Below, piece after piece: positions 37,324-47,928 of a stretch of DNA of 64,000 nt. The DNA is taken from positions 33,274 through 97,273 of the forward strand of contig CAKPBJ010000004.1 of NCBI GenBank assembly GCA_934140575.1, written 5' to 3'. A model generated the notes under the pieces. That model ran no database searches. It had not been told where the DNA came from and saw nothing but the letters and a program-made list of their open reading frames with translations. Origin of the DNA: an uncultured Bacilli bacterium (lineage in GTDB: Bacteria > Bacillota_I > Bacilli_A > RF39 > UBA660). The position numbers and the translations under genes are program-made. How positions within the stretch are numbered: position 1 is the stretch's first letter; each line of letters opens with the position of its first letter.

Positions 37324-38157
37324 TTAACTATTGAGTCTTTCTTTAAAAGTACATGATTGGCATAATTTTTCACAAGGTTTTCTATCTTGAAATGATTTTT
37401 TTAATGATATGTATTTTTCTGAATTAATTATTTCTTCTAGGCTTTCTTTGAATATATTACCAAGATTAACTACTCCATTTGAATCAAGACAACAAGGAAC
37501 TACTGTTCCATCTACTAATATACCTATTTGAGTTTTTAAGGCATAGCAATAACCATTACTTTTATGAGTTGTTACTTCTGGCCAAGAAAACTCATTATCT
37601 TTATCCACATATATTGTGGATTTTATTTTTATGTTATTAGATGTATAAATTTTATCAACAGTTTCTTGTGGTAAATTATAATATTTTTTTATTTTATTAA
37701 CAATTTCTTGTGACTTACTATCTAATTGATTATTTTTTAAAGTCCATAAACGATATATTATAATTTTATCTTTTAATAATTCCACTTTTTTAAATATTTC
37801 TTCACAGTAATTATCAAGACTATTTTCTGAATGAAGAGAGAAATTTATTTTGCGTAGTGAGTTACATTCACTTAACTCTTTTGCTACTTTACTAAATAAT
37901 GTACCATTTGTTGTAAGGTTTACTTTTAAATTATACTTATCTGCAAGGCGTAAGAACTCTATAATATTTGGATGAAGTAATGGTTCTCCTTTAATATGAA
38001 GATATATATAGTCGGTGTAGTCTTTTATTTTTATTAAAATATTTTCAAACTCTTCTGTTGTCATAAATCTTCTTTTTCTTTTTACTTCACTGCAAAAACT
38101 GCATTTTAGATTACAATTATTGGTAATTTCTATATAAATTTTTTTGTATTTTTTCAT
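37324..38157 (-). CDS. radical SAM/SPASM-domain protein
   Basis: The N-terminal CNLKCSFC motif is a CxxxCxxC cluster, and GEPLL is present. A C-terminal Cys cluster (CCLD...CEKLCQSC) is typical of SPASM/twitch domains. Its ATG overlaps the uvrB TGA as ATGA. Confidence 0.7.
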
Positions 38158-40106
38158 AGTGTTGTCTTCATTTCAAATAAGATATCACGTAATTCCATTG
38201 CTCTTTCAAAGTCAAGGTCTTTTGCAGCTTTTCTCATTTCTGCTTCGATACTATCTATTTCTTTCATTATTTCTTTCTTAGTTCTCTTCTTCTTTGTCTT
38301 TGTATCTGCATTAGCATTATTTGTGATAATGTCTCTTATATCCTTCTTTATTGTTTGTGGAACTATACCATGTTCTTCATTATATTTTTCCTGAATTTTT
38401 CTACGTCTTGCAGTTTCAGTAATTGCTTCATTCATAGAGTCTGTTATTTTATCACCATACATTATTACGTGACCATTTGCGTTTCTTGCACATCTTCCGA
38501 TAGTTTGAATAAGACTTCTTGTACTACGTAAGAATCCTTCTTTATCAGCATCAAGTATGGCAATTAATGATACTTCTGGAATGTCTAGACCTTCTCTTAA
38601 CAAGTTGATTCCTACAAGTACGTCGTATTTTTTGGCTCTTACATCATGAATTATTTGCATTCTCTCTAATGTTTTTACTTCACTATGAAGATAAGCAACT
38701 TTTATGTCTAACTCTTTTAGGTAATTTGTTAATTCCTCTGCCATTCTAATAGTTAAGGTTGTGATTAGTACTCTTTCATCTTTTTTGATTCTTTCATTTA
38801 TCTCACCAACAAGATCATCAATTTGACCTTCAGTTTTTCTTACTTCTATTGTTGGATCTAATAATCCTGTCGGTCTAATAATTTGTTCTACATATTGATT
38901 ATTTGTATGTTCTAATTCTAAATCACCTGGTGTTGCGGAAACATATATGGCTTGATTTATCTTTTTTTCAAATTCATCATACTTTAAAGGTCTATTATCT
39001 AGGGCACTTGGAAGTCTAAATCCATAATCAACTAAATTCATTTTTCTAGCTCTGTCACCATTATACATACCTCTAACTTGTGGTAATGTAACGTGAGATT
39101 CGTCTACTACTAATAAATAATCATCTGGGAAGAAGTCCATTAATGTCGTTGGTGTTTCTCCTGGCTTTCTTCCGGCCATTGGTGCAGAATAATTCTCTAT
39201 TCCTGAACAAAATCCTGTTTCTTCTAGCATCTCTAAATCATAATTTGTTCTTTGTTCTAGACGTTCTGCAGCAAGTAATTTATTTTCATTCTTTAACACT
39301 TCCAATCTGTCTTTTAATTCAAGTTTAATTCTTTCAATTGCTGATTTTAATTTTTCATCACTTACCACGAAGTGACTTGCGGGGAAGATGCTTACATTTT
39401 TCATATTTTTTAATATTGTACCAGTTAATGTGTCTATTTCACAAATTCTATCTATTTCCTCATCAAAAAATTCTATTCTATATCCTATTGTATTTTGATT
39501 TGCTGGAATAATTTCTAATGTATCTCCTCTTACTCTGAATGTACCACGCTTAAAGTCTAAATCATTTCTTTCATACAACATTTCAACTAACTTTGTTAGA
39601 ACTTGTTCTCTTGATGTGTTTTCTCCAACACTTAGAGTTAACATTTTGTTTTTATATTCTTCTACTTCACCAATACCATAAATACATGATACTGATGATA
39701 CTACTATTACATCTCTTCTACTAATAAGGGCAGAAGTTGCGGCATGACGTAATTCATCTATTTCATCATTAATTGATGAGTCTTTTTCTATGTAAGTATC
39801 AGTTGATGGAACATATGCTTCAGGTTGATAATAATCATAATAAGATACAAAATATTCTACTCTATTTTCAGGAAATAATTCTTTTAATTCACTGTATAAC
39901 TGACCAGCAAGAGTTTTATTATGAGCAAGAACTAGAGTTGGCTTATTTGTTCTTGCGATTACATTAGCTATAGTGAAAGTTTTTCCTGTTCCAGTAGCGC
40001 CTAGTAAAACTTGTTCTTTTTTTCCTTCTTCTAATCCTTTTACTAGTTTGTTAATTGCTTGTGGTTGGTCACCTGCTGGTTCATAATGTGCGTGTAATTT
40101 AAACAT
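38154..40106 (-). CDS. uvrB: excinuclease ABC subunit B
   Basis: The helicase motifs ([13 protein letters not shown]) are present, and the C-terminal UVR domain reads [15 protein letters not shown]. The likely start is [10 protein letters not shown] at 40106, preceded by GGAGGGAGG. Confidence 0.95.
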
Positions 40107-40242
40107 TTTTTTCCTCCCTCCTTTATAACTTTCTGTGACTTTTTTTGAACTTTTAAAAGTATAACTGTCAGCCAACTATTAGTCCCTAAATTTGTCCTCA
40201 TTGCTTATAATTTAATGGTTAAATTGATACTTTTTTCTTTGG

Positions 40243-40263: not shown

Positions 40264-40433
40264 TTATTTTCTGGACTAAATAACATTAAACAACATTAGA
40301 TGGCGTTTTCGCTATATTATTTTATCATTTTTCCCTTGAAAAAACAAGGTAATCGCAAAAATACCCTATTCTTATTATCATCTATTTTTTAATTAAAATA
40401 CTGTTAATTCATTTAAAATATTTTCATCAATAG

Positions 40434-41135
40434 AAATATCAGATTCGTCCCCAATTTGTATTTCTAATTATTGGTACCGCAATTTATGCAGCAGCATATA
40501 ATTTATTTTTCTTTAAGAATAGCATAGTATTTGGTGGTGCAAGTGGTATATCAATAATTACCCAAAAGATAATAGATCCTTCTGTTATGATACTTATCTT
40601 AAACGTATTTTTCCTGATTTTAAGTTTGTTTTTATTAGGAAAAAGAAAAAACCTAGATTCGGTTGTAGGTTCTGTTTTATTTCCACTATTTGTTAAATTT
40701 ACGGCAAATATAGGAGATTATATTCATATTTCAAACGATAATTTACTTTTAATATCAATAGTAGGCGGTGTATGCGTAGGTACTGCATCTGATATTATAT
40801 TTAAAAGTTGATTTACAACTGGTGGAACTGATATATCAAACCAAGTAGTAGCAAGATATTTTAAAGTTTCAATCGGAACTTCTATGCTAATGACTGATGG
40901 ACTTTCAGCGTTTAATGTATCGGTTGGACAAATAGTTACTAAAGATACTGTAATAGGAAAATCAGGAAATACCGGTAATTCAACAGGACCACACTTACAT
41001 TTAGGATTAGCAAATGGTAGGTGATATGCTGACTATTATTCATATTATGGAAATAATTGTTTTATAGGACATTCATTTAACCCAAGAAATATAATAGGAT
41101 TTCCGGTAAAAGGACAGAACTATTATAACAGATAA
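40434..41135 (+). pseudogene. chimeric pseudogene: YitT-family N-terminal part joined to an M23-peptidase C-terminal fragment
   Basis: The translation QIRPQFVFLIIGTAIYAAAYNLF...FTTGGTDI matches residues about 20-175 of the YitT paralogue at 55275-56153. It then continues in frame into VGQIVTKDTVIGKSGNTGNSTGPHLHLGLANG, which is M23-like (compare GYMGNTGYSFGCHLHLE at 51576-52733). In-frame stops lie at 40809 and 41022, and no start codon is present. Confidence 0.7.
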
Positions 41136-41319: not shown

Positions 41320-41847
41320 GTGAATCAAAAGGAAAAGAAAGGGTTAATAGCTTTAGTAATACTACTTGTAGTAGCTATTGGTGTTGGTTTTGCAGCATCA
41401 CAAGACGCAGTAAATATTACTGGTACTGCAAGCGCTGTTGCAACGGATTTTGATATTCAGTTTAAAACTGATGCTGAAATAACAATACAAAAAAGTGCTG
41501 GTGCTGCAATAGCTGCTTCAGGTGCTTATGGTGCTAATGGAAATGCTGATGCTACAATGACTGTTTCTGGATTAAAGAACGCTGGTGATTATGCAGAAGC
41601 AACTTATACTATCATAAACAAAAGTACTGATGTAAACGCTGACATTACAGCAAAAGTATCATCTGCTATTGAAGATGCAGATCATTATAATGTTGAAGTA
41701 ACAGGTGGTGCAAATGGTGTTGCTCCAGATGCAACAACTACTGTAACAGTTAAAGTTACACTAATCAAAGCTTTTGCTGATGATACAGCTGCAAAGACAG
41801 CAAAATCATTCAAAATTACAGCAACTGGTGTAGCAGCTGAAAAATAA
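41320..41847 (+). CDS. small secreted protein with SipW-cognate-type signal peptide (TasA/BsaA-like matrix-fibre subunit candidate)
   Basis: The 175-aa ORF uses a GTG start after AAAGGAGG. It has a K-rich N-region, an h-region, then FAASQDAVNITGTASAV. The mature part is Ala/Thr/Gly/Val-rich and acidic. Confidence 0.55.
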   Translation: MNQKEKKGLIALVILLVVAIGVGFAASQDAVNITGTASAVATDFDIQFKTDAEITIQKSAGAAIAASGAYGANGNADATMTVSGLKNAGDYAEATYTIINKSTDVNADITAKVSSAIEDADHYNVEVTGGANGVAPDATTTVTVKVTLIKAFADDTAAKTAKSFKITATGVAAEK

Positions 41848-41882: not shown

Positions 41883-43007
41883 GTGGCTAAAAGAAGAGAT
41901 TCGGCTTATATATACTTTGCATTTGTAATAGTATTTCTTCTCCTTAATCTTCTTGTGCTAAATATTAGTGCAAAATTACAATTGTTACCCATATTTATAA
42001 TTATATTTTTGTTAAGTTTTATCTTCTTCAAATTTAGAAAAGACAAAACTTATGCAAGAATTCGGGTAACTATTACAATGTTACTTATAGGAATTGTACA
42101 AATAGTTTTATATCTTTTAACCGGCTTTTTAGAGGGTTTTTCTAAGAATGCTATTAGTATGAGTTTTAACCGTTTTTTAACCGTTATTTTACCTATTATA
42201 TTAATATTAGTAGTTATTGAATTATTAAGATATATGATATCAGTAAAATTCGAAAAAAACAATTTAATAAGAATACTTAGTATTACTATGTTTGTACTAT
42301 TTGATGTGACTTTATTTGGCTCAAATGTGATTTTTAATAGTTTGGATTCTGTATTAGAATTTTTAGGAATAACGTTTTTTCCTAGTCTGGTAAGTAATAT
42401 TGTGTTTGATGATATGGTAGTTAAATATGGATATAAACCAATACTTGTTTATAGATTATTAACAACGTTATGTTATTACATGTTGCCTATCGTTCCTAAT
42501 ATGTATATTTTATTTAGGGCAATTGCAAGAATAGTTATTCCTCTTATTTTTTACTTCATATTATCTTATATGTATGATAGGGTAACGTTTCAAGAAGCAT
42601 TAAAGGTAAAGCCTAATATAAGTATTTCATCAATAATTATACTTATATTAGTAATTATTATGGCAGGTTTAATATCTTGCGAATTTAGATATGGTATTTT
42701 AACAATTGGAAGTGGTTCTATGACTGGAACTTTAAACAAAGGAGATATTGCTTTTGTCGAAAAATTTAATGGTCAGGAGTTAGAAATAGGTGACATTATT
42801 ATATTTAAACGAGGCAAAAGAAATATAGTCCATAGAATCACACAAGTTGGCATATTCAATGATGAATACGTTTATATAACAAAAGGAGATAAAAATAAAG
42901 TAGAAGATAATGGGTATGTTTATCAAAAGGATATTCAAGGTATAGTTCACTATAGGATAAAATATATTGGATACCCATCTATTTGGATAAGAAATTTATT
43001 TAATTAA
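41883..43007 (+). CDS. SipW-type (archaeal/ER-type) signal peptidase I fused to an N-terminal 8-TM domain
   Basis: The C-terminal roughly 110 aa read GSGSMTGTLNKGDIAFV...IVHRITQV...ITKGDKN, with the Ser and His of the SipW/Sec11-type catalytic dyad. The N-terminal roughly 250 aa contain 8 predicted TM helices and no His. The start is GTG after GGAGGAGG. Confidence 0.6.
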   Translation: MAKRRDSAYIYFAFVIVFLLLNLLVLNISAKLQLLPIFIIIFLLSFIFFKFRKDKTYARIRVTITMLLIGIVQIVLYLLTGFLEGFSKNAISMSFNRFLTVILPIILILVVIELLRYMISVKFEKNNLIRILSITMFVLFDVTLFGSNVIFNSLDSVLEFLGITFFPSLVSNIVFDDMVVKYGYKPILVYRLLTTLCYYMLPIVPNMYILFRAIARIVIPLIFYFILSYMYDRVTFQEALKVKPNISISSIIILILVIIMAGLISCEFRYGILTIGSGSMTGTLNKGDIAFVEKFNGQELEIGDIIIFKRGKRNIVHRITQVGIFNDEYVYITKGDKNKVEDNGYVYQKDIQGIVHYRIKYIGYPSIWIRNLFN

Positions 43008-43038: not shown

Positions 43039-44133
43039 ATGGACAGAAAACAAATAAACAAAGTTATGCAAGCAACAAAAAAAAGAACTAGAACTATTGC
43101 TATTTTGATATTTGTTGTAATAGCTGTTTTACTTGCAGCTATAAGCATAATTTTTATCTCTATAAATAGTGAGAAGAATTACTACATTCATTATGATGAA
43201 AAAAGTGATTTAGATTATAAGGTATATTTAAAAGAAAATGATTATTTTGGAAGATACCTAGGTAAAAACAATCAATATATTGCAAGCCTAATTGATTATG
43301 TGGAGGCAGATTTTAATTATAAATTATCAATCGATGAGAAAATTGATTATTCATATTATTATTACGTAGAAGCAACTGTTCAGGTTTTAGATACTAATGA
43401 TAAACCATTATATAAAAAGGTTGATAAAGTAGTTGAAAAACAATATTTCAAGGATCCTATTAATCATGCTTTTGAAATAGATCAAACTGTTAATTTGGAT
43501 TATAATTACTATAATAATATAGTAAATACGTTTATTAAGAGATATAACTTATCAAATGTTAAAAGTAATGTCACTTTAAGTATGTATGTTGGAATTGAAG
43601 GGGAATGTAAAAAATTTGATTCTTCTTTAGCAGACAACGCAGTTATTAGTATGAACGTCCCATTAACAACAAACACTGTTAATATTGACATGAATTATAA
43701 ATTAAATAATTCTACAAACAAGTTATTAAAATGTAGAGAAGAATCAGTATTAAATAATAAATTACTTATTTTAGGCATAGTTTTATTATTCATTGATTTA
43801 GGTGTTTTCGTAGGAACTATTAGATATTCAAAAAGAACTAGAAGCACTTTAACTATATATAATAAAAAACTAAAAAGTATTTTTAATAATTATGGTCAAT
43901 ATATATCTAAGATTAAAACGGAGTTTAAATATGAAAAATTTCAAATTGTATTAGTTGAAGAGTTTGAGGATTTATTTGAGGTAAGAAATTCAAGTAATTC
44001 ACCTATATTATTTTGTCAGGATGAAACAAAAACAAGAAGTGCCTTTGTTGTTCCAACAAATTCTGGACTAGTGTACATCTATTATTATTCAATTAGTAAT
44101 GTGATTGAGCAAGGATGCAAACATGAAAGTTAA
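43039..44133 (+). CDS. bitopic (2-TM) membrane protein of unknown function
   Basis: The 364-aa ORF has a TM helix near residues 20-42 and a second near 243-262, with a Tyr/Asp-rich extracytoplasmic domain between them. It overlaps the next gene. Confidence 0.5.
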   Translation: MDRKQINKVMQATKKRTRTIAILIFVVIAVLLAAISIIFISINSEKNYYIHYDEKSDLDYKVYLKENDYFGRYLGKNNQYIASLIDYVEADFNYKLSIDEKIDYSYYYYVEATVQVLDTNDKPLYKKVDKVVEKQYFKDPINHAFEIDQTVNLDYNYYNNIVNTFIKRYNLSNVKSNVTLSMYVGIEGECKKFDSSLADNAVISMNVPLTTNTVNIDMNYKLNNSTNKLLKCREESVLNNKLLILGIVLLFIDLGVFVGTIRYSKRTRSTLTIYNKKLKSIFNNYGQYISKIKTEFKYEKFQIVLVEEFEDLFEVRNSSNSPILFCQDETKTRSAFVVPTNSGLVYIYYYSISNVIEQGCKHES

Positions 44134-46492
44134 AGATAAATTTTTAAAGGCACGAAAAAAATATAGTGATAGTAAGAAGTGGGCAATTTTTCTTATATTA
44201 ACTATATTTTTATTGAATATAGGTTACGCAGCTTCAAAGGCCTCGCTTGAAATAAATGGTAGTGCGAGTGCTGTAAAAGTACCAGAATTATTTATCGAAG
44301 AAGTAAAAATAATTGACATAAACGGATGTTCACAAAATGAACTTCCCATAACAAATGGAACTACTTTGGATACTAATATAAATTTTCCTTCTAATGAATA
44401 TTCATATATAACATATCAGGTAACTATTGCAAATGGTACGGATTCTATTCAAAAGTATACAGGAGAAACTTATAATAGCGTTACATCAACTAAAAATGTT
44501 ATTAATTATGAACTTACGGATGGTCTTTCTTCCGGTGAGTATTTGTTTCCTGGGAATAGTGCAACATATACGTTAACTTATAAGTATAGAAACGGTGCAA
44601 GTACAGGTAATTATGATTTGAAAATGAACTTTAATTTTGAAGATTCCGGTAAGTTTTCTGCACTTTCATATACAAATAGTGTTGATTTAACTAATAAAAC
44701 TAAGGAAGCCGTAAAAATTAAGGTAATGAATAATGGAGATTCTGCAATCAATTATAATCTCAACATAGATAATACTAAATTTGAACTAACTGATATTAAT
44801 GGAAATTTTTTAAGTTCTCTTTCTATAAAAGCTCATACTGAAGAAGAAATAACTGTTTATATATCCAAAAAGCCAGATGTTACATATTACAAAACAGAAT
44901 ATGAAACAAACTTTAGTTTAAGTTATAATGATATTACACTAGATTTTGGAAAAATAAAAATAAAAACAAATACAACAAGTGGCTATGTTGATACAACACC
45001 TCCTCAAATAGGGGCAGTATCAGTTGATATCGTATATGAAGTCGGATCAATTGATGTTACTTGGTCTAATTTAGATAATAAAAATGAGGCTCCAGTAACT
45101 AATTATGTTGTTTTACTTTATAATGATTCGGGAACTCTTGTTACAACCGGAAACACTGGTAATTCAGATACCACCTATAGATTTAAAAATCAAGCACAAG
45201 GAAATTATTATGCTGTAGTTTATGGTATAGACGAAGCTGAAAATTCAGGAGAAACTTATGTTTCAGTTTCTTCAACATCAACAACCAATGCAAGAAAATC
45301 TGTTACAAAAGAAATGAGATGGAAAAGAACAATAACATATAATGTTACAAATATTAATGTTACAGGACCTAATGAGGCTAATTTAGGTGAGTCATTTACA
45401 GCTACATTAAAACCGAATAATAACTATAAATATAATTCTGTTCCTTCAGTTACGTCAGACGGTAAAACTTTTAAAGATTATTCAACGGATGCTAATAAAT
45501 ATACTATAACAATAAATCAGGTGACAGGTGATTTAGTTATTAATGCAACAGCAGCAAGAAATGCTTGCCTTGCTAAAGGAACAAAAATATTACTTGCAAA
45601 TGGCAAATATAAGAACATAGAAAATATTAGATATGATGATTTACTAATGGTATATAATCATGAAAATGGTACATTTACTCCTGAATATCCTATTTGGATT
45701 GAAAAAGGTAATTTGTCTAGTAATTATCAAGTAATAACATTTAGTGATGGTACTTCTTTAACAACGATTGATAAACATTCTTTATTTAGTGTTGATGATA
45801 ATAGATATGTTGATGTAACAGATGAAAATACATTTCACGTTGGAACTAACATATTAAAAACAGTAAAATCTAAGAGAGGTTACAAGCTCAAAAGTGTTTC
45901 TGTAACTAATATAGAAAAGGTAAATAAATCGATTGATTATTATGACGTTGTATCAACAAGATACTATGATATAATTGCAAACGATGTATTAACATCAGAT
46001 GGAAGAACAGGACTAGTTAATTTTTATGAATTTAAGGAAAATGCTGTTTGGTCTTCAAGAAGACAAGAAGTTATAAAGAATAATACATTCTTAAACTATG
46101 AAGATTATAAATTTATTCCGTATTACTTGTTCCATGGCTTAAGAGCACAAGATGGAGCGGTTATAATTAAGTATAATTATATGACTAAAGAAGAATTTGA
46201 ATCTGTGTTTACCGATTTATTATTAAATAAAGAAATGGTATTAGATCCAATAACTAAAAACAAAAAAAGATATTGGATGGTAACAACATCAGATGATAAA
46301 GTAACAAGTAAAAATAAAGGAAAATATTTACTGAAAGAAAATAGTTATTATACGTTAGAAAAACCTAAGAAAACGAAAGATTTCAAAGGTTGGTATAATA
46401 CTGGCGATGGGAAAATTTATAAACCTGGTAGTAAGGTAAAGATATATCATGGTACACATTTTGTTGCATCATATAAAAAAATTAGCTCATAA
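44123..46492 (+). CDS. large secreted multidomain protein (SipW-cognate-type signal, FN3-like, Hint/intein-like domain, C-terminal Flg_new-like repeat)
   Basis: The start is taken at ATG 44123, with AAGGA 6 nt upstream. The signal ends NIGYAASKASLEINGSASAV, which parallels gene 41320. An FN3-like segment is present (DVTWSNL...YRFKNQAQGNYYAVVYGIDEAENSG). The Hint N-terminus reads CLAKGTKILLANGKYKNIENIRYDDLL and the Hint C-terminal block reads YYDIIANDVLTSDG. The C-terminus, FKGWYNTGDGKIYKPGSKVKIYHGTHFVASYK, resembles a Listeria-Bacteroides repeat. Confidence 0.6.
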   Translation: MKVKDKFLKARKKYSDSKKWAIFLILTIFLLNIGYAASKASLEINGSASAVKVPELFIEEVKIIDINGCSQNELPITNGTTLDTNINFPSNEYSYITYQVTIANGTDSIQKYTGETYNSVTSTKNVINYELTDGLSSGEYLFPGNSATYTLTYKYRNGASTGNYDLKMNFNFEDSGKFSALSYTNSVDLTNKTKEAVKIKVMNNGDSAINYNLNIDNTKFELTDINGNFLSSLSIKAHTEEEITVYISKKPDVTYYKTEYETNFSLSYNDITLDFGKIKIKTNTTSGYVDTTPPQIGAVSVDIVYEVGSIDVTWSNLDNKNEAPVTNYVVLLYNDSGTLVTTGNTGNSDTTYRFKNQAQGNYYAVVYGIDEAENSGETYVSVSSTSTTNARKSVTKEMRWKRTITYNVTNINVTGPNEANLGESFTATLKPNNNYKYNSVPSVTSDGKTFKDYSTDANKYTITINQVTGDLVINATAARNACLAKGTKILLANGKYKNIENIRYDDLLMVYNHENGTFTPEYPIWIEKGNLSSNYQVITFSDGTSLTTIDKHSLFSVDDNRYVDVTDENTFHVGTNILKTVKSKRGYKLKSVSVTNIEKVNKSIDYYDVVSTRYYDIIANDVLTSDGRTGLVNFYEFKENAVWSSRRQEVIKNNTFLNYEDYKFIPYYLFHGLRAQDGAVIIKYNYMTKEEFESVFTDLLLNKEMVLDPITKNKKRYWMVTTSDDKVTSKNKGKYLLKENSYYTLEKPKKTKDFKGWYNTGDGKIYKPGSKVKIYHGTHFVASYKKISS

Positions 46493-46531: not shown

Positions 46532-46885
46532 TTATTCTTTAATTATATATTTTATTACTTCTTCTATGCTTTTCTTTGTTCCATTAGTATTGTAATATAT
46601 TAAAACAGTATCAATAGCAAGTTGTAGCATATTAAAATATATTGTAATCTCACGCTCTTTAGCAGTGTCTTTATATTCATTAATATATTTTTCAAATATC
46701 TTTTTATCTTCATTTGAAAGTGGTTTTATTTCAAAATTATATTTCTTTTCTTTTTTTGCAAATTCAGGAATTATTATTTCTTCTTTTGTATCTTCTATTA
46801 CATTTTTTTGTTCTTCTTTTTGTTTTTTAATATCACTTATTTTGACTTTAAGGTGGTCATTTGCAGAATTCTCTTTTACTTTCAT
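46532..46885 (-). CDS. hypothetical K/E-rich protein with predicted C-terminal ribbon-helix-helix-like segment (ParG/omega-like?)
   Basis: The 117-aa ORF has a C-terminus (REITIYFNMLQLAIDTVLIYYNTNGTKKSIEEVIKYIIKE) with a beta-alpha-alpha pattern. It lies immediately downstream of the ParA fragment, in the same frame, separated by one stop codon. Confidence 0.35.
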   Translation of the reverse strand: MKVKENSANDHLKVKISDIKKQKEEQKNVIEDTKEEIIIPEFAKKEKKYNFEIKPLSNEDKKIFEKYINEYKDTAKEREITIYFNMLQLAIDTVLIYYNTNGTKKSIEEVIKYIIKE

Positions 46886-46900
46886 TTCTGATACTATCTG

Positions 46901-47206
46901 TTATACTCTCTCCATTGCTATCTCTTGAATATTCATTAAGTGCTCATTAGTAGTGTTGTGTATAGAGATTTCTTTCTCTCTTTCAAATACTTTAACCTCA
47001 TCATTGCGTGTTTGTCCTCTACTTAAATCTTCTTCATTATACCAACCTGCATAAGTTGTTAGGTTACTTTGTGGATCAACATCTACAATTAAAACTTTTT
47101 TACATTGCTTTGCTAATGCTACTCCAAGATTAAAAGTTGTTGTTGTTTTACCAACTCCCTCTTTTTGGTTTGTAATAGCAATTACCTTACACCTACTTTC
47201 TTGCAT
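46901..47206 (-). pseudogene. ParA/Soj-family partition ATPase, N-terminal fragment (truncated)
   Basis: The 101-aa ORF has the deviant Walker A ([23 protein letters not shown]...[10 protein letters not shown]) but ends after about 100 aa, whereas full ParA proteins are about 200-260 aa. Confidence 0.6.
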
Positions 47207-47644: not shown

Positions 47645-47928
47645 AAAAGTGCTAACATCATAATAAGATACAAAATATTCTACTCTATTTTCAGGAAATA
47701 ATTCTTTTAATTCACTGTATAACTGGCCAGCAAGAGTCTTATTATGAGCAAGAACTAGAGTTGGCTTATTTGTTCTTGCAATTACATTAGCTATAGTGAA
47801 AGTTTTTCCTGTTCCAGTAGTGCCTAGTAAAACTTGTTTTTTCCTTCTTCTAATCCCTTTACTAGTTCGTTAATTGCCTGTGGTTAATCTCCATTTGGTT
47901 TATATTTTGAAACAAGTTTAAACATAAA
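47645..47928 (-). pseudogene. duplicated, decayed copy of the uvrB 5' end (codons 1 to about 93)
   Basis: The segment aligns to 39832-40106 (the real uvrB 5' end) and covers the start codon. Identity is about 96-97 percent over the first roughly 190 nt, then a 5-nt deletion, and the last roughly 40 nt are heavily diverged. The deletion breaks the frame. Confidence 0.8.

Follow-up and report, generated by a model that had tools for sequence, protein, structure and literature searches.

What does a Hint domain do at the C-terminal end of a secreted protein that is encoded in a putative fibre operon? This question is raised by a gene on a contig of an uncultured Bacilli bacterium (GenBank assembly GCA_934140575.1, contig CAKPBJ010000004.1, positions 33,274 to 97,273), of which the whole analysed stretch of 64,000 nucleotides is referred to as the window. 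The open reading frame (ORF) comprises the window positions 44123-46492 on the plus strand, starts with an ATG at 44123 that has an AAGGA ribosome-binding site 8 nt 5' of it, and encodes a protein of 789 amino acids (aa). Hint domains are known from inteins, Hedgehog proteins, bacterial intein-like (BIL) domains and pretoxin modules. Among the papers searched, none connected Hint domains to fibres of the TasA-like, donor-strand or pilus kind, and the Hint cassette on a putative fibre subunit would be an undescribed way to cut or attach a bacterial fibre protein.

The Hint protein is probably the large accessory subunit of a TasA-like fibre and carries a C-terminal autoprocessing cassette cleaving at Ala481/Cys482. 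Its place in the fibre may be the tip, the cap or the anchor. The fibre itself is proposed to be built from the small protein encoded at position 41320 and to be processed by a multi-transmembrane (multi-TM) signal peptidase I together with its DUF5305 partner. Directly supported are the fold of the Hint domain, its invariant catalytic residues, the operon and the homology to the small subunit, as is the finding that the cassette recurs on further fibre subunits.

Domain organisation of the Hint protein

The following features were assigned to the Hint protein (a slash marks a cleavage site or domain junction):

44123-46492, plus strand: coding sequence of the 789-aa Hint-cassette protein, with 69 full-length homologues and relatives in at least 120 species genomes
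44123-44227, plus strand: signal peptide (residues 1-35), h-region ending NIGYA/A, with a single hydrophobic segment at residues 20-38 and a predicted cleavage site
44228-44287, plus strand: N-terminus of the mature protein, donor-strand-like (residues 36-55, ASKASLEINGSASAVKVPE); the monomer model shows it as disordered, with a predicted local distance difference test score (pLDDT) of 45-62
44288-44644, plus strand: domain 1, a beta sandwich (residues ~56-174) homologous to the small subunit; model strands 21-139, hhalign alignment reaching residue ~116
44654-44965, plus strand: domain 2, an immunoglobulin (Ig)-like beta sandwich (residues ~178-281); model strands 143-246, weak PapD/ASH-type Ig matches in family members
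45011-45277, plus strand: fibronectin type III (FN3) domain (residues ~297-385)
45290-45559, plus strand: domain 4 (residues ~390-479), a beta sandwich with VINATAARNA at its end; model strands 355-444
45566-46000, plus strand: Hint domain (residues 482-626, 145 aa) with the nucleophile Cys482, the block-B His552 and the C-terminal T624-S625-D626
46001-46252, plus strand: conserved helical region (residues 627-~710) packed on the Hint domain; model helices 156-227, pLDDT 87-94
46253-46489, plus strand: single Flg_new-like beta-grasp domain (residues ~711-789)

The codon of Cys482 occupies the positions 45566-45568, and the junction translated from 45536-45625 reads NATAARNA/CLAKGTKILLANGKYKNIEN. 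The Hint domain ends with Asp626 (45998-46000) at the junction DIIANDVLTSD/GRTG, which is translated from 45968-46030. All 69 full-length homologues are unnamed, and the closest protein cluster contains 362 member sequences.

The model of residues 36-481 (pLDDT 92.1) starts with ~20 disordered residues at the N-terminus, after which come four beta domains, one of which belongs to the FN3 family (PF00041) according to both its sequence profile and its fold. The FN3 module in front of the Hint domain, which had been proposed in a preliminary description of this locus made from the sequence alone, was thus recovered, and the sequence strings quoted there are present in the ORF. The conserved helical region of ~80 residues between the Hint and the Flg_new domains is an addition to the architecture given at that time. 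In direct Pfam and NCBIfam scans the Hint protein gave no fn3, Flg_new or TIGR04088 match, and a search of the PDB with its single sequence was uninformative.

Taken alone, the protein matched the Pfam family PF05203 (Hom_end_hint) with 21.9 bits (cut-off 32.1) over the residues 482-509 only. The families PF01079 and PF07591 gave no match in the Pfam scan, and the NCBIfam intein models remained far under their thresholds. Since these single-sequence scans were below threshold, profiles and structure prediction were required for the assignment of the domain. Weak matches were obtained for family members to Hom_end_hint (26 of 46) and to PF01079 (Hint; 11 of 46), and in the alignment of 46 homologues no other part of the protein is conserved as well as the Hint region. 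With a profile of residues 474-789, all 145 residues of the domain were covered by an alignment to the solved BIL2 HINT domain of BUBL from Tetrahymena (6y75/6tmm; E 3.5e-5), which was the best match by sequence as well as by Foldseek. The AlphaFold2 model of the same residues, in which the Hint domain and the C-terminus were predicted together (pLDDT 92.4; predicted template modelling score, pTM, 0.89), displays the horseshoe-like all-beta fold of the Hint superfamily. As judged by profile and model, the predicted Hint fold is secure and far beyond chance. The preliminary description had claimed a full Hint domain and had regarded a score below threshold as its refutation. The protein alone does fall below the Pfam threshold, but this result is overturned by the family profiles and the fold, and the claim is borne out by the BIL2 match, the Pfam matches of the family and the confident model.

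Conservation of the active site

Residue counts refer to 155 distinct family proteins obtained from a protein search and from 80 genome loci, all of which carry the Hint domain. The first domain position is a Cys in 152 of 152 aligned proteins, and Cys482 aligns with Cys1 of BIL2. The block-B His and Thr624 are each kept in 151 of 151 proteins, and an Asp is found at the position of Asp626, which aligns with the terminal Asn of inteins (Asn143 of BIL2), in 133 of 151. The position of the penultimate His of inteins holds Thr or Ser in the family. The residue following the domain (+1) is variable and mostly Gly (also R, D, A, E or T; G627 in this protein), the residue preceding it (-1) varies freely, and a second Cys within the domain is absent from most members. 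Since Cys1 and the block-B His are invariant while the parts of the proteins outside the Hint region share 27-35% identity, the N-S acyl shift at Ala481/Cys482 is argued to be functional. Given this conservation pattern, cleavage or transfer at this bond is the activity predicted for the domain.

The C-terminal block of the Hint domain is present at the domain end as previously noted; however, it reads T-[TS]-D instead of the His-Asn of inteins. Due to the lack of His-Asn and of a +1 nucleophile, the T-[TS]-D being followed by a variable residue, canonical splicing is not expected, and N-terminal cleavage or transfer is expected in its place. Judging from these motifs, splicing or ligation by this domain seems unlikely. 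Of the earlier suggestion that the domain may autocleave or ligate its flanks, the invariant Cys1 and block-B His therefore back autoprocessing and leave ligation unlikely.

A true mobile protein-splicing intein would share the mini-intein fold and the Cys1 nucleophile. It would, however, be expected to possess the His-Asn motif and a Cys, Ser or Thr at +1, neither of which is found here (T624-S625-D626/G627), and no endonuclease is present. Furthermore, the domain occurs in every family member without any intein-free alleles, and its flanks are separate folded domains rather than the halves of a split host domain, so that the intein reading has virtually no probability left.

BIL domains are among the known systems that come closest. 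A-type BIL domains are defined by a conserved C-terminal His-Asn, whereas B-type BIL domains show all intein motifs except the C-terminal one and display N-terminal cleavage as well as an atypical C-terminal cleavage (PMC7765530). The T-[TS]-D of the present family does not agree with the A-type, and BIL2 itself (6tmm/6y75) ends with His-Asn. The likeness to the B-type rests on its description, i.e. the C-terminal intein motif is missing and the others are kept. With BIL domains, especially those of the B-type (Amitai et al. 2003; Dassa et al. 2004; reviewed in PMC7765530), the family shares the Hint fold, the occurrence in secreted non-housekeeping proteins, Cys1 and the block-B His. As in the B-type, neither the C-terminal motif of inteins nor a +1 nucleophile is present, and N-terminal autocleavage would be expected. 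It differs from BIL domains in its fixed three-part C-terminal cassette, which is tied to fibre operons.

Several observations weigh against an active domain. The Hint protein does not reach the gathering score of the curated Pfam Hint models, the block-B Thr is one residue off (TxxxH and not the canonical TxxH) and occurs in 94 of 151 proteins (62%), the block-F Asp is not conserved, the penultimate His is absent in the family, and the cleavage is deduced from conservation alone. A catalytically dead, structural Hint domain within an uncut multi-domain adhesin would agree with these sub-threshold scores as well as with the state of the motifs, in which the penultimate His, the terminal Asn and a +1 nucleophile are lacking, the block-F Asp is not conserved and the block-B Thr is out of place. 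However, Cys1 and the block-B His are invariant in at least 150 proteins with flanks of 27-35% identity, and the conservation of the nucleophile within the most conserved part of the protein would be unexpected in a dead domain. A loss of catalytic activity is therefore considered improbable.

The C-terminal extension and the recurrence of the cassette

A profile of the C-terminal extension (residues 627-789) was searched against 1.84 billion representative proteins. It detected proteins with 8-10 genuine Flg_new tandem repeats (E 2.6e-21; their Pfam Flg_new match 1.9e-125), which are aligned by the last ~65 profile positions only. Both this profile match and the beta-grasp fold of the InlB B-repeat type assign the end of the protein to Flg_new (PF09479, Listeria-Bacteroides repeat); the sequence of the Hint protein itself gave no match to Pfam Flg_new. 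The C-terminus is thus Flg_new-like as proposed earlier, but it consists of one domain and not of repeats, and its surface-binding role is putative. No PDB relative of the helical region was found by sequence or by fold, the profile of residues 627-789 had no PDB sequence match, and the helical region of the family is without Pfam coverage. A binding of the cell wall by a basic C-terminal region was considered and dropped, since the isoelectric point (pI) of 9.6 in this protein compares to a family median of 7.0.

The Hint domain is located directly before the C-terminal module, and the cassette at the very C-terminus, in all 98 representatives (at least 440 aa, full module). In none of these 98 was the helical region seen without a preceding Hint domain. 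The Hint domain, the helical region and the Flg_new domain are one unit that travels between proteins. Most of the cassette-bearing representatives have an AbpX-like leader. The cassette also ends a protein of 578-583 aa with the TasA-type leader VYAYFSDS, which is encoded by the first gene of a sipW/TasA-camelysin operon (L080 859-5107, L075 6155-10392). Downstream in this operon follow a 372-aa protein, a camelysin/BsaA-type TasA homologue matching TIGR04088 and PF12389, and a SipW-like peptidase of 179-187 aa (scores within the operon: TIGR04088 42.1 bits, PF12389 32.5 bits, TIGR02228 95 bits). The L080 contig bears an AbpX-like module besides this operon. Furthermore, the cassette ends a 924-aa prepilin-like protein (N_methyl) that heads a Tad-type pilus operon (L087 8001-16440), in which it is followed by TadE, a CpaE-like ATPase, a T2SSE ATPase and two T2SSF proteins. 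Another prepilin-like protein and BspA-type leucine-rich repeat (LRR) or DUF285 repeat proteins, the latter two with ordinary or lipoprotein signals, end with the cassette as well.

This distribution bears on the question whether the protein is a polymorphic toxin of the PT-HINT type, in which the Hint domain would release residues 627-789. Proteins with PT-HINT (PF07591; PMC3482391) are likewise large and secreted and have their Hint domain close to the C-terminus, where it is thought to release the downstream part, and the distant match P0071 does have a PT-HINT domain. However, PT-HINT proteins combine a variable C-terminal toxin with an immunity gene, whereas the cassette has a constant, non-toxin-like C-terminus behind a variable N-terminus, which is the reverse of polymorphic toxins. 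None of the Pfam families that the 46 members matched at E≤0.01 was PF07591, the Flg_new beta-grasp domain makes up the last ~70 residues, and no immunity-like gene follows, the next genes being located on the opposite strand. The toxin processing envisaged in the preliminary description was therefore abandoned. The release of a toxin is very improbable, and both this and the intein reading were rejected on the grounds of motifs and architecture.

The four-gene operon and the link to its small subunit

The Hint protein gene is the last of four genes on the plus strand and is preceded by the following three:

41320-41847, plus strand: small putative major fibre subunit of 175 aa and first gene of the module, an acidic beta protein (mature pI 4.48) with a signal peptide and a donor-strand-like N-terminus
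41883-43007, plus strand: multi-TM signal peptidase I of the archaeal/endoplasmic reticulum (ER) type, 374 aa; TIGR02228 77.3 bits (cut-off 51.85), PF10502 28.4 bits
43039-44133, plus strand: DUF5305 membrane protein of 364 aa, putative accessory subunit of the signal peptidase; PF17231 51.4 bits (cut-off 29), TM segments at 22-40 and 243-261

The DUF5305 gene overlaps the start of the Hint protein gene by 11 nt. The same order of the four genes was found in ~55 of 80 loci from species genomes and additionally in four metagenomic relatives. The nearest genome loci are those of UMGS957 (98%) and HGM10828 (96%). Module-bearing genomes are labelled as uncultured Bacilli, 'Tenericutes', Erysipelotrichaceae or Mycoplasmatota and originate from human gut, rumen and chicken. 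Scans for promoters and terminators revealed sites no more frequently than expected by chance.

A second, paralogous module is located directly downstream of the Hint-containing one at L002 10559-17554 (also in L032 and L041). In L002 it comprises a 217-aa small subunit, a 375-aa peptidase, a 487-aa DUF5305-like protein and two subunits of ~560 aa with similar leaders but no Hint cassette.

The composition of the operon matches that of the AbpX-type loci of the TasA superfamily. According to a preprint of January 2026, AbpX loci encode a signal peptidase I with ten TM segments, a DUF5305 protein, for which an accessory role was proposed, and minor subunits. Further products that enter the fibre through donor-strand complementation are predicted to sit at its tip or, in the case of bacteria, to anchor it by LPXTG or SLH (bioRxiv 10.64898/2026.01.04.697558). 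A term search of this preprint (bioRxiv 10.64898/2026.01.04.697558) finds neither Hint nor intein. The present operon shares with the AbpX/TasA loci (for TasA-TapA-SipW of B. subtilis see PMC9674648, PMC10151520) the acidic small subunit with an N-terminal strand, the archaeal-type signal peptidase I with many TM segments, the DUF5305 protein and a large accessory subunit with the N-terminus of the small subunit. Whereas the accessory subunits of the AbpX/TasA loci carry LPXTG or SLH anchors or varied tip domains, the Hint cassette is found here.

The signal peptidase possesses at least seven hydrophobic segments in front of the catalytic domain according to a hydropathy scan (~9 by eye) and is not the SipW equivalog (NF046067 52.7 bits vs 190). 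The operon nevertheless shows the features of a dedicated signal peptidase of the SipW type, namely an archaeal/ER-type peptidase encoded next to substrates with a shared, co-varying leader. At their N-termini, the Hint protein and the small protein at 41320 share 46% identity over a stretch of 35 aa that comprises the leader and the first mature residues, and both leaders have the motif xG[FY][AS] in common. The form G[FY]A/x[FY] is found in most family members, and the proteins of the window have a Ser there. The similarity extends well into the first beta domain, as an hhalign comparison of the small-subunit family with the N-terminus of the Hint protein gave a probability of 96.9% (E 1.8e-10, 110 columns). 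Over the 19 residues after xG[FY][AS], the identity between the two proteins was 0.269 within a locus and 0.196±0.010 between loci (0 of 5000 shuffles; 48 distinct loci), the significance of this co-variation being inflated by related loci. The shared leaders, the homology, the co-variation and the disordered N-terminal strand support that the same peptidase cuts both proteins and that the large protein joins the fibre via its N-terminus.

TIGR04088 gave no hit at E≤1 for either the Hint protein or the small subunit. The preliminary description had assumed a SipW-cognate-like signal and a SipW-dependent system. Despite the missing TIGR04088 match, the signal is of the dedicated-peptidase type, given the leader identity and the TIGR02228 enzyme in the operon. 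The peptidase, in contrast, is not a Bacillus-type SipW due to its length, its TM segments and its DUF5305 partner, although related cassette proteins are encoded in a true sipW/TasA operon. The small subunit has more than 700 homologues, all without a name. It belongs to no Pfam family and gave only weak Ig-like matches and one weak camelysin match. Its sequence showed no detectable match to TasA, camelysin or AbpX models, and profiles built from 5 and 36 sequences revealed neither a solved relative nor a match to solved TasA-like proteins.

Predicted self-processing and fate of the thioester

In the proposed sequence of events, the Hint protein would be exported and its signal removed, whereupon the free N-terminal strand (ASKASLEINGSASAV) and the pilin-like domain 1 would let it enter the fibre. 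The three further beta domains, including FN3, would serve as a stalk for the constant autoprocessing cassette at the C-terminus, which consists of the Hint domain, the helical region and one Flg_new domain. The Ala481-Cys482 bond would then be moved onto the thiol of Cys482 by an N-S acyl shift, presumably assisted by His552, and upon resolution of the thioester a ~49-kDa N-terminal passenger would part from the ~36-kDa cassette. We infer that the protein is cleaved, that it enters the fibre through donation of a strand, and how the thioester is resolved. By default, the thioester would undergo plain hydrolysis, which would lead to maturation or release of the protein.

Alternatively, the thioester could be resolved as in Hedgehog proteins. 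In this case the helical region and the Flg_new domain would act as an adduct-recognition region that positions a specific nucleophile, and the passenger would become linked to it via the carboxyl group of Ala481. With an amine of peptidoglycan or lipid II as nucleophile this would result in a sortase-free anchoring of the fibre base, and with a host or target molecule in a covalent adhesion of the tip. We regard such a transfer as possible but clearly less probable than processing at this bond as such.

The layout of the protein argues for a transfer, since a variable N-terminal cargo, a Hint domain and a conserved C-terminal region also make up Hog proteins (PMC2362128). In the Hog domain the Hint domain is combined with a sterol- or adduct-recognition region (SRR/ARR) behind varied cargo, which is handed to an adduct (cholesterol). 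The cargo preceding the present cassette is AbpX-like, TasA-like, prepilin-like, LRR or DUF285. The helical region is strictly coupled to the Hint domain, and in the model the Hint domain and the C-terminal region appear to form one compact unit (pTM 0.89). Furthermore, the equivalent strand-donating protein of AbpX loci in other bacteria has an LPXTG or SLH wall anchor, on the cassette proteins with ordinary Sec signals (LRR, DUF285) no other anchor is visible, and the related uncultured orders RFN20 and ML615J-28 were reported to be without srtA/B (PMC10868615). Sortase chemistry likewise consists in a thioester that is resolved by an amine. Sortase/LPXTG systems and the thioester-domain (TED) adhesins of pilus tips in Gram-positive bacteria are a conceptual parallel only: an amine or a hydroxyl group resolves a thioester located at the end of a fibre subunit or close to it, which results in a covalent link to the wall or the host. 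There is no homology to these systems, and the thioester would here come from the protein's own Hint domain.

However, neither an adduct nor a binding site was seen, equivalents of Asp46 and Cys143 of Hedgehog are missing, the Hint domain of most members contains only one Cys, and the C-terminal regions do not keep a common pI (median 7.0). Hedgehog (1at0; PMC2362128) is eukaryotic and its SRR is short and sterol-binding, whereas the extension of the present protein comprises ~160 aa with a novel helical part and Flg_new. Cassette proteins with a prepilin or lipoprotein leader are already held at their N-terminus, which weakens the wall-anchor version of the transfer.

Processing at Ala481/Cys482 within a TasA-like fibre subunit, the preferred reading, would add a component to the recently described AbpX-type loci. 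It points to a general self-catalysed step in the building or attachment of surface structures of abundant but uncultured Bacilli of the human gut and the rumen, in lineages of which some orders are reported to be sortase-free, and to a possible new tool for extracellular protein ligation or cleavage. It is conceivable, though doubtful, that the cassette is a self-contained bacterial counterpart of the Hedgehog autoprocessing domain, which would form a thioester where a fibre or surface protein ends and pass this protein on to a specific nucleophile. If so, a nucleophile in the cell wall would provide sortase-free covalent anchoring and one in a host or target molecule covalent adhesion, and uncultured, genome-reduced gut Bacilli would use such a transfer on at least three unrelated filament systems.

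Neighbouring regions of the window

The operon is located between two copies of a 273-bp stretch from the 5' end of uvrB, which are repeated in direct orientation with 90.5% identity at window positions 39834-40106 and 47657-47925. The uvrB gene itself comprises 38154-40175 on the minus strand, and the second copy lies downstream of the fibre operon. Several gene fragments share the interval between the two copies with the plus-strand operon. The GC skew changes its sign over about 36-46 kb of the window. The region between the uvrB copies looks like an inserted or rearranged island.

At 40400-41130, fragments of the genes for a YitT-like membrane protein and an M23 peptidase are joined, each with an in-frame TGA. 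Compared to the 97%-identical contig L001, ~3 kb comprising ftsE, ftsX and most of a pcsB-like gene are missing at this site, as the window positions 40684-40904 correspond to 1-221 of L001 and those from 40901 onward to 3200 onward. In L001 this copy of ftsEX-pcsB is an inverted duplicate of a downstream ftsEX-pcsB set. In view of the in-frame TGAs, an alternative genetic code was considered but rejected, since they lie within gene fragments left by the ~3-kb deletion, and translation table 11 leaves the long ORFs intact in the part of the window that was inspected.

Directly after the operon, the minus strand of 46532-47206 contains a 101-aa truncated ORF for a ParA/MinD-like ATPase (Walker A KEGVGKTT) and a 117-aa ORF rich in lysine and glutamate, which are probably remnants of a mobile or plasmid-like element. 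On the other side, a 277-aa ORF at 37324-38157 on the minus strand overlaps the end of uvrB by 4 nt and encodes a radical-SAM-like CxxxCxxC motif and a Cys-rich C-terminus.

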